Virus record (IMG/VR): IMGVR_UViG_2698536657_000009
Strand: one strand, 5' to 3'
DNA: 19,066 nt
Source: a virus
Taxonomy: Duplodnaviria > Heunggongvirae > Uroviricota > Caudoviricetes
A program made the position numbers. Below are positions 9,001 to 12,000 of this stretch, in pieces. Position 1 is the first letter of the stretch, and each line of letters opens with the position of its first letter.

Positions 9001-12000
9001 GGTGACTGCGCCAGCTCAGAGTAATCCGCATTAAGAACAGCATCTGCTGCCGCCATTGCACTCTGCCCCTGTGCACTGGCTGTGGAATGGGTGATCAGGC
9101 CCGCCTGGAATAAATCCGGCATTTTTTTATCGACAGCTTCTGCTGCCAGTGCCGTGGCTCTTTCCGGCTGCATCCCTGCCGCGATGTATTTTTTCTCCAG
9201 CCCGGCGGTCAGCATTTTTCGCAGTGTGACATCACCCACCTTTTTAGCCACACCGCCAACAACCATATCAGGTACAAGCGCACCAATCAGGTTTACACCC
9301 TTCGCCACCCAGACCGCAGAATCATCATAGCCTTCGGTCATCGGCGTATTCAGCGCACGAACAGCACCCGGCGACATCTTACCGGTCAGCCATTCATCCG
9401 AGGCTTTAGCACCATCACTGACTGACTTGCCTGTGACCTTCAGACCTTTACCGACAGTATCAGTCACCGCGTTTTTCCCTGTTCCATCGGGAATGTTTTT
9501 AATCGCATCTCCAACAGAAGGTGGTGCGCCCAGTTCCTTTTGCGTGGAGGAAGGCGGCATGTAAACATCCGTCATGAAAGACGACAACCCGGCAAGCGTT
9601 TTTACAGGATTATTTACAAGTGCATCACCGAGTCCACGGGCCATTTCCCCTGTTCCCCGGACGGACTGGGCGAAACCTTTACCCATTGTTGGCAATACAT
9701 CACCGAGGCTGAACGATGTGCTGTGATCAATGGCATTCTGCGGGTTGCTGAAAAAATCCTGCCAGTAATTTTCTCCCGGCTGCTTAATGTTCAGGCTGCT
9801 GCGGTTCTGGTTACCCAATTGCGCTTCAGGGCGCTGCTCATCTGAAAAAGCCATACAGACTCCAGTAAAAAAAAGCCCGACACGATGGTCGGGCGTAAGT
9901 GAACGATATTAACGGGGAGCGCGTTACTGCCGCATATCTTTACTTCATCCAGCCTTTGATCTTCTCGGCAGCTGCGGAAGCGCTATAATCCAGCGCCTTT
10001 TCATGCTCTGCCTTTTTATCCCGGAGGTGATTCTGGTAATAAATTTCCACCTCCTTTTCACGACCAGGTTCCAGCAAAGCAGGCGCATTGGCGGCAGCCT
10101 CTTTTACAAACTCCTGTTTAACCGGATCGCCCGCCGCCCACGGCTGCCACTTCTGTAAAAGCTGTTGCGTTTTCCGTTGCTGAACTTTCTGTTGATGCGG
10201 CAGTGAATCATACGCTGCTAAAAACTCATCATTCGCAGCCTGAGCATCACGGCCATCCTTGATCGCCTGAGCCACTACTTTGCTGGCTTCCTTCTGAAGC
10301 TCTTTCAGAGAAAGTCCCTGCTGCTTCGGCATGAAATAACCATAATTTTTCGATATCTCTGCAAATTTGCTGCGATCCCTGACCTGAGCGATAGCCTTAT
10401 CAACGGGTATCGCCAGCACGGTTTGATCATCAGGGTGCGCACTGCCGTATTCTGTTACAGGTTTATGCGCGGTGGAGCCATCGCTGTATGTGAGATCAAG
10501 GCCAATAAGTACGTACCCTTCCTGCTGCGCCGGTACGATACTGCCAATCCTGGCCTCTTTTATCGTTTTTTCCCCGGTTGAATCAGGCATGCCAATACGC
10601 TGTTGTAGTTCCGGGGCAAACACGCCGGAAAGCACATCGAGATTTTCCGGGGTATTCAGCGAATCGATCGCCATGTCCGGCTTATCACCAAAGATTTTTT
10701 GCAGGTTGATCACGGCCTGACCCGCTTTCGCTGCATAGCCTTCGTTTGACATAAGAATTAATGGATGTCCCTTTGGCAGCTGCCCGAACAGACGCGTTGC
10801 AGCCTCCTGATCGCCAGCCTCAATTGCTTTTCCAATCGCTTCCATTAGTGGCTGGCTATGGGCAATCATATCGTTATACTCAAGCCGTCGCTGGTTGTAT
10901 TTCTGCAACTGGAGTCGTTGCTGTTCCATCCCCAGCGACGCATTCCGGTAATTCTGGTTGGCGTTAAACTCCCTTTCCTGCAGTGTGTAATTGCGGTCAT
11001 CAACTTTGGCTCTGTAATCAAAGTTCCGCTGATCAACGTCTTTATTATGTTCAAACTGAGACTGCGCAAATTCAAAATCGCGCTCGTTATTTTTCTGTTG
11101 CTGAGCAAGCTGTGCTTCTCGCAAACCAAGCTCCTTACGACGGGTCATTGCCTGATCAACAGTGCTGAATCCAGCAAGTAACCCCTGTGCAAATCCGCTC
11201 ATTCACCACTCCTTAAAACAAAGCGCCTGCAATGCCGCCAATTACTGCACCAGCAACAGCGCCGACGGCTGTCCCCACTACCGGTACTGCTGAACCAACA
11301 GTCGCCCCGATAGTGGCCCCCGTACCAATGCCCGTACCGATATTCTGTTTTTTCTGAGCTTTCTGTTGAGCAGCCAGTTGTTTATTTGATGCCTCAATCT
11401 CTGTACGTCGTCTGTCTGCGTCACTTATTCCCTGTAATGCCTCACGCCGCGACTGATTTGCAATATCCAGTAAACCGTATCCCATATTGCCCCCTTACGC
11501 TGCCACCAGTTGTCCGCCAACACTCAGTTTCTGTCTTGCCGGTGCAGAAGCCCCCGTCAGAATATTCATCTGGCGATCCTGTTCGGCTTCACGGATACCA
11601 TTTTTCGCGCCAGCAATTGCCAGGGCATTACGTAACCCCAGCGTATTACTGTCGGGATTATCCGGGCGGTTTACCCCGTATCTCGCCATCTGGTTATCCT
11701 GCGCCATCTGCGCTGTACGGAGACTGGAAGTGGCAAGGCCTCCCACCCGTGCAAGCTGTGCATTCATCAGACTGTTGTTCTCCCCAAGGTCAGCCAGCCT
11801 TGCTACACGGGGTAAATATCTGGTGCGCCAGTCGTCGTATTGCTGGCGGGTCAGCGCTGCGGATGTCTGCCAGTCCCCCTGAGGGCGGGCTGCTCCGGTA
11901 TAACCGTATCTTGCAAGTGTTTCGTATTTACCGTACTCCATAATCACAGTCTCCAGTTCTGAGCCTGATGCTGAATGGCATTAGCGCCGGTGCCAGGTGT

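Follow-up and report, generated by a model that had tools for sequence, protein, structure and literature searches.

The junction in front of the giant gene

The window analysed here, that is, the whole stretch of 19,066 nucleotides (nt) deposited in IMG/VR as virus record IMGVR_UViG_2698536657_000009 (Caudoviricetes), is the distal late region of a Sepvirinae (933W/phi24B-like, Shiga-toxin-type) lambdoid prophage. The element under study is a predicted intrinsic (Rho-independent) terminator situated between a gene for a protein of 420 amino acids (aa) and an 8.4-kb gene, referred to below as the giant gene. A 1-kb segment spanning this junction matches 186 phage records, mostly Shiga toxin (Stx)-converting Sepvirinae phages, and is found in 424 of 5,426 complete E. 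coli genomes. Annotated relatives share the gene order tail-tip fibre, small genes, lom, hok, five conserved genes of unknown function, the giant 'LPD5/LPD38 domain' gene and attR. The junction itself comprises the following features:

9940..11202, minus strand: upstream gene encoding the 420-aa protein (PHROG 601, function unknown), the last gene before the terminator, with its stop at 9940
9894..9875, minus strand: terminator hairpin GCCCGAC-CATCGT-GTCGGGC, with a 7-bp stem and a 6-nt loop, its pairing kept via compensatory changes in relatives
9874..9867, minus strand: U-tract TTTTTTTT (T8), immediately 3' of the hairpin; T7-T9 in close relatives
9866..9855, minus strand: spacer ACTGGAGTCTGT, 12 nt between the end of T8 and the ATG (9854..9852)
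9863..9860, minus strand: GGAG ribosome-binding site of the giant gene, 3 nt past the T-tract and 5 nt before the ATG
1467..9854, minus strand: giant gene (8.4 kb), encoding a polyvalent protein of 2795 aa with LPD5, LPD1, MuF_C and LPD38 domains (Pfam)

The stem consists of six G-C pairs and one A-U pair, and the hairpin alone folds with a free energy of -13.8 kcal/mol. The element thus has the architecture of an intrinsic terminator, a GC-rich stem-loop followed directly by a U-tract of at least about six residues, and the first-pass annotation of this DNA had located it exactly, with respect to the hairpin coordinates, the 7-bp stem, the U8 and the 12-nt gap to the giant-gene ATG. All flanking genes lie on the minus strand, as does the only T-run. 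Read on the plus strand, the hairpin has A8 before it and GTAAGTG, not a T-run, after it; the terminator therefore acts in one direction only, and a bidirectional terminator is ruled out. The fold of the full 96-nt intergenic region is unremarkable (z = -0.56), so that only the local hairpin stands out.

A lax scan of the window returned 37 terminator-like sites, against 18 ± 4.9 in shuffled sequences. Under strict thresholds (a stem of at least 7 bp with at least five G-C pairs, and at least seven T in the following eight positions) five sites were found, against a mean of 0.115 in 200 shuffles, and four of these five are clustered on the coding strand inside 3.6 kb, at 13493 (after lom), at 12985, at 12635 and at the giant gene. 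This enrichment of the strict motif, together with the conservation in relatives detailed below, demonstrates that the terminator is no chance match; by prediction, it is also a strong one.

Terminators at the junction in relatives

Close relatives were represented by 46 IMG/VR loci retrieved with the 420-aa protein. They carry three hairpin alleles, GCCCGAC/GTCGGGC, GCCCGGC/GCCGGGT and ACCCGGT/GCCGGGT, with a T-run of T7-T9 and a constant distance from GGAG to ATG. The Salmonella relatives, in which the N-terminus of the giant protein is 60-65% identical, have the form GCCCGG..CCGGGT followed by T6ATTT, and all four alleles, the three of E. coli and that of Salmonella, retain a 20-nt hairpin. 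For the five distinct sequences, pairing is kept in 97% of cells and both sides have changed in two pairs, including an A-U to G-C replacement at stem position 6; as a control, sliding the 3' partner by one to three columns leaves only 26-51% of cells paired.

In the 933W/phi24B-type (type-B) allele the hairpin opens with an in-frame ATG (ATGCCCGGCC...; phi24B HM208303, locus L141, positions 13149..13190), and the start annotated in GenBank for the giant open reading frame (49148) therefore falls inside the terminator, 13 codons upstream of the conserved GGAG-ATG start.

For distant relatives, a scan of genome contigs supplied eight loci and a second IMG/VR scan was added for breadth. In these relatives the N-terminus of the giant protein is only 25-32% identical. 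A GC hairpin followed by T6-T8 was nevertheless found in all six distant genome loci (Pectobacterium, Brenneria, Yersinia, Symbiopectobacterium) and in 27 of 31 further IMG/VR loci, with 17-39 nt from the end of the stem to the giant-gene ATG. These lineages comprise at least 13 different stems, whose free energies, for those folded, range from -7.6 to -19.3 kcal/mol. In the other four of the 31 loci (L128, L133, L137 and L140) there are two terminators in tandem, 150-220 nt upstream, and a conserved extra leader of about 150 nt separates them from the giant gene. Pairing is thus maintained in two respects, by compensatory changes among the five close sequences and by independent stems at the same place, and GGAG and the MA(F/Y) N-terminus of the giant protein are kept in all relatives.

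The distant loci carry variable cargo between the 420-aa homologue and the giant gene, for example a Gp49/HTH (helix-turn-helix) toxin-antitoxin pair on the other strand, a Rha regulator, an NA37 protein, or unknown genes of 407 and 427 aa. In cargo-bearing loci the terminator always lies downstream of the cargo, adjoining the giant gene, and no terminator was found after the 420-aa gene. The predicted terminator belongs, on this placement, to the 5' side of the giant gene and stays with that gene, not with the cargo.

Two further observations concern the same region of the relatives. In a Pectobacterium-like group (loci L057-L059, L061 and L117-L135) the block GCGCTAAATT(A/C)CCCAAAGAT(A/G)CC stands about 30 nt before the hairpin, whatever lies upstream, and the motif CTAAATTC recurs past the T-run. 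Two contigs of Xanthomonas pisi DSM 18956 (801 and 376 nt; L054 and L055) encode an E. coli-type giant-protein N-terminus with 78-94% identity, most likely owing to contamination of that assembly.

Transcription of the giant gene

The 12-nt gap between the T-run and the ATG leaves no room for a promoter, as the first-pass annotation had argued, and a scan for sigma-70-type promoters found no consensus site between 9855 and 11202 on the minus strand, a range that includes the whole upstream gene. The latter result speaks against the alternative, put forward in the same annotation, of a promoter inside that gene. By inspection, the best -10-like hexamer upstream, TAATAT, has no usable -35 partner, and a TAAATT hexamer in the Pectobacterium group is likewise without one.

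The operon context is seen in prophage Sp5 of strain Sakai, where Q (PF06530) lies at 1265889-1266323 and the giant gene (ECs_1242) at 1296023-1304404, all annotated genes from one to the other being on one strand except for bor and an IS629 insertion. The homologous hairpin, at 1295986-1296005, is located about 30 kb from pR'. A non-Stx prophage of strain JNEC-KY176, which is 94-99% identical to most of the window, shows the same layout of Q and co-directional late genes. In a census of 48 kb of Sp5 all eight strict terminators fell on the late strand. Slightly relaxed thresholds gave about ten co-directional sites from pR' to the end of the giant gene, of which three or more abut the next ribosome-binding site. 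The giant-gene element is thus one of a set and no peculiarity of the giant gene.

Expression in the lytic cycle is documented by published data on the homologue in phage phi24B, at the levels of reverse transcription quantitative PCR (RT-qPCR), RNA sequencing (RNA-seq) and virion protein. By RT-qPCR, the 8-kb open reading frame of phi24B (clone CM7) rises with norfloxacin induction (Riley et al. 2012, PMC3342100), and lom, upstream, is constitutive and uncoupled from phage regulation (PMC3342100). By RNA-seq, fold induction amounts to 134 for S, 75 for the small terminase, 30 for the portal and 22 for vb_24B_39 (Veses-Garcia et al. 2015, PMC4651098 Table S4), continuing with 15.5 for _40 (tail tip), 3.0 for lom, 8.3 for _44 and 7.0 for _45. 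According to the numbering of HM208303, the 420-aa homologue corresponds to vb_24B_47 and the giant gene to _48; their fold inductions, 7.3 before the terminator and 5.6 (p = 0.31) after it (PMC4651098 Table S4), indicate that induced transcription crosses the terminator with little loss, although, being fold changes, they carry no statement on absolute level or on terminator action in uninduced cells. The homologous protein of phi24B, of about 2800 aa, is abundant in purified virions and has been proposed to be an ejection protein (bioRxiv 10.64898/2026.04.10.717836).

The element is probably a functional Rho-independent terminator inside the single long late operon, passed only by Q-modified polymerase and insulating the giant gene. 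The giant gene, having no promoter of its own, would be transcribed only by polymerase modified by Q at pR', about 30 kb upstream, which would ignore the hairpin and likewise the roughly nine other co-directional terminators en route. Polymerase that bypassed pR' and Q would be halted at the hairpin, whether it came from the promoters of accessory genes (lom, hok), from cargo inserted at the junction in other phages, or from spurious promoters, and in the lysogen the 8.4-kb gene would thereby be shielded from transcription that does not depend on Q. The anatomy, enrichment and conservation of the element, its association with the giant gene, the operon layout of relatives, and the induction-linked expression and virion location of the homologue are established by the data; that the site terminates transcription, that Q lets polymerase through it and that insulation is what selection has maintained are what we infer. 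Of what the first-pass annotation had proposed, Q-type expression by read-through gains support from the missing promoter, the presence of Q in relatives, the induction-linked expression of the phi24B giant gene and the occurrence of its product in virions. The further claim of a gene silent in the lysogen and switched on during lytic growth agrees with the phi24B data as to induction; its first half needs qualifying: silence in the lysogen is mainly due to tR', next to pR', and all that the terminator itself can halt is local transcription that has not picked up Q.

Several points weigh against this interpretation. Covariation among the five close sequences fails to reach significance in comparison with column shuffles (72/500 and 70/500); what carries statistical weight is the occurrence of independent stems in the distant lineages rather than this test. 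Q and pR' lie outside the window, and Q with co-directional genes downstream of it was found in relatives only (Sp5, JNEC-KY176), on which this part of the argument is based. The phi24B fold changes are relative and come from a single time point, the 5.6 having p = 0.31. Finally, Salmonella relatives retain the terminators even without lom or hok, two of the presumed sources of the transcription to be blocked. A link to hok was rejected, since Salmonella and Pectobacterium loci without hok retain the elements.

Among other explanations, a dosage attenuator is unlikely. Here Q-modified polymerase would partly terminate at the hairpin, so that the giant gene would receive less mRNA than the five preceding genes, setting the ratio of virion proteins in the lytic phase. 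The stepwise drop of fold induction along the phi24B operon, from 134 (S) to 7-8 (g218/g150/g420 homologues) and 5.6 (giant gene), would fit, but the step at the terminator itself (7.3 to 5.6) is small and not significant, and the gradient is equally explicable by sampling time or basal levels. Q-loaded polymerase (lambda Q, Q21) is moreover highly resistant to terminators over tens of kilobases. Partial termination is listed as one possible role of such terminators (PMC8022706), and attenuation is compatible with insulation rather than exclusive of it.

A lower probability still is given to an RNA-stability element, in which the hairpin, within read-through mRNA, would shield the upstream cistrons from 3'-to-5' exonucleases once the 8.4-kb cistron had been cleaved, or cap the 5' end of a processed giant-gene mRNA, termination being incidental. 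Intercistronic stabiliser hairpins are known in other operons, and the position between cistrons and the stable stem in every lineage agree with this. On the other hand, a run of T6-T9, which a stabiliser does not need, directly follows the stem in all lineages, several loci carry tandem terminators, and the ribosome-binding site lies anywhere from 1 to about 150 nt away, a spread that speaks against a fixed role in 5' capping or translation. Termination, rather than a translational role or 5'-end protection, is the better fit to a T-run that is constant while its spacing to the ribosome-binding site varies.

Very improbable, lastly, is that the terminator closes a separate lysogen-expressed unit or small RNA and the giant gene has its own promoter in or after the upstream gene: lom and hok, with their own terminators 3 kb upstream, and the short conserved block before the hairpin in the Pectobacterium group would fit this, but the 12-nt gap, the negative promoter scan of 9855..11202 (TAATAT without a -35), the lack of any Hfq peak listed at the Sp5 junction (Sakai 1295953-1296023; PMC4104026 Table S2) and of any Rfam family, and the occurrence of the 420-aa gene in all relatives, which makes it no accessory insert, all count against it. 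In Rfam, no family was returned at the junction at gathering score, and at E <= 1 there were only weak hairpin matches to terminator ends of unrelated small-RNA models.

Compared with known systems, the element comes closest to the terminator predicted by Zaworski et al. where the procapsid module ends in the late operon of P22/L (PMC8022706). Both are predicted Rho-independent terminators between cistrons of a single-promoter, Q-type-dependent late operon, and both have the same candidate roles, blocking of non-antiterminated transcription or partial attenuation; of terminators inside lambdoid late operons it was said that 'their roles are not known' (PMC8022706). The present one differs in belonging to a Sepvirinae podovirus lineage and to another junction, in abutting the ribosome-binding site, and in its position being conserved across enterobacterial genera. 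With tR' of lambda and Stx phages (6S RNA/StxS; PMC7547250) it shares the late-strand hairpin and U-tract, tR' being overridden by Q-modified polymerase. However, tR' lies about 200-260 nt from a constitutive promoter with a Q loading site and gives rise to an abundant Hfq-binding RNA (PMC7547250), whereas the giant-gene terminator is about 30 kb downstream, with no promoter-like site found nearby and no Hfq-bound peak in Sakai; a regulatory terminator of the tR' type (6S/StxS) was rejected on these grounds.

The terminators of morons (lom and bor cassettes of promoter, gene and terminator) resemble it in keeping lysogen-expressed transcription out of late genes, and cargo does lie directly upstream in distant relatives. 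Unlike in morons, the gene in front of the terminator belongs to the conserved core, and it is the giant gene that the terminator accompanies. Every E. coli, Salmonella, Pectobacterium and Brenneria relative has the 420-aa gene, which is thus no accessory insert, so that a moron-cassette terminator was rejected. The t'J sites of lambda, beyond gene J and near lom, are terminators at the far end of the Q-dependent late transcript; they mark the end of that transcript, whereas the giant-gene terminator still has an 8.4-kb virion-protein gene beyond it.

Neighbouring elements and implications

Three further terminator-like elements lie upstream of the 420-aa gene within the late region of the window:

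12635..12613, minus strand: second terminator ACCCTGC-TCCG-GCAGGGT with T5, between the stop codon of the gene for a 133-aa protein and the ribosome-binding site of the gene for a 217-aa protein (ATG 12594)
12985..12954, minus strand: intragenic terminator-like hairpin CGCCTGC-CTTAAAAA-GCAGGCG followed by GTTTTGTTTTG, inside the 133-aa gene (12688..13065/13089)
13493..13470, minus strand: lom terminator ACCCGC-TGTGATG-GCGGGT with T5, directly past the lom stop codon (13517)

The terminator at 12613..12635 has counterparts in the E. coli and Salmonella relatives, one Salmonella lineage showing a paired C-G deletion; the Pectobacterium group lacks it.

The intragenic hairpin, a by-product of this analysis, is more unusual than the giant-gene terminator. 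Its codons read GAC GCC TGC CTT AAA AAG CAG GCG TTT TGT TTT, the loop containing AAAAAG, and it folds as an 11-bp hairpin extended by pairing of A-tract and U-tract. Over the stretch 12954..12990 its synonymous sites are invariant in E. coli, Salmonella, Symbiopectobacterium, Pectobacterium and Brenneria, although the proteins are only about 50% identical; identical conserved degenerate codons number 8 of 9 inside the element, versus 2 of 29 elsewhere in the 133-aa gene (Fisher p = 8e-6). Such invariance points to a constraint at the nucleic-acid level and suggests an overlapping RNA or DNA element in this gene.

More tentatively, the giant-gene terminator and the hairpin of the 133-aa gene may be a pair of ancient gates, one on either side of the internal-protein module (g218 to g420), that insulate cargo sites and force strict Q dependence on the giant gene, a possibility we rate well below that of the single insulating terminator. 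Standing just downstream of two cargo-accepting sites, such gates would have been selected to make insertion harmless, and the intragenic hairpin would be read by a specific factor or be a translation-sensitive terminator, not a generic stop.

Several other features of the window and its counterparts were recorded. A hok/gef-family toxin gene lies between lom and the 133-aa gene (13100..13440, minus strand), with a sub-threshold Rfam sok match at 13275..13433 (37 bits versus a gathering score of 59), and in Sakai the Hfq-bound antisense peak EcOnc53 is situated just past lom. On the plus strand, directed against the late genes, the terminator-like site CGGGGG-TTGGTCATG-CCCCCG with T6 occupies 18403..18429, upstream of the gene for a 563-aa internal virion protein; it has a counterpart in Sp5 (1287599..1287581) and could end an antisense or convergent small transcript. 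A mosaic patch at 9479..10169 takes in the C-terminal ~75 codons of the 420-aa gene and extends across the spacer into the giant gene for ~125 codons; compared with Sp5 and JNEC-KY176, this sequence either does not align or has 81% identity, against 96-98% in the flanks, and the end of the 420-aa protein and the start of the giant protein seem, from this comparison, to have been exchanged as one unit. The terminator lies in the middle of the patch (10169..9479) and not at its edge, so that its interpretation as a mosaic-boundary marker was rejected. On the 3' side of the giant gene, the minus strand carries a 9-bp GC hairpin (1459..1438) without a T-run and then about 330 nt of AT-rich DNA. 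The gene for a YadA-like trimeric-autotransporter adhesin starts at ATG 1106 on the minus strand and runs off the window; it is an accessory gene, present in only 42 of 5,426 complete E. coli genomes.

The element in front of the giant gene is ordinary in kind, a new, well-conserved member of the intra-operon terminators of lambdoid late operons, and it leaves the textbook picture of Q antitermination unchanged. The junction is nonetheless a good test case, for the terminator has long been kept before one gene and remains beside it despite cargo insertion, and it is carried by Stx phages, which are of medical importance and for which Term-seq (strain Sakai: PMC7547250), RNA-seq and genetics are already available. 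If insulation is indeed its function, constitutive accessory genes, such as lom, hok, toxin-antitoxin pairs and adhesins, would be tolerated in the middle of the late operon without leak of a large virion protein.

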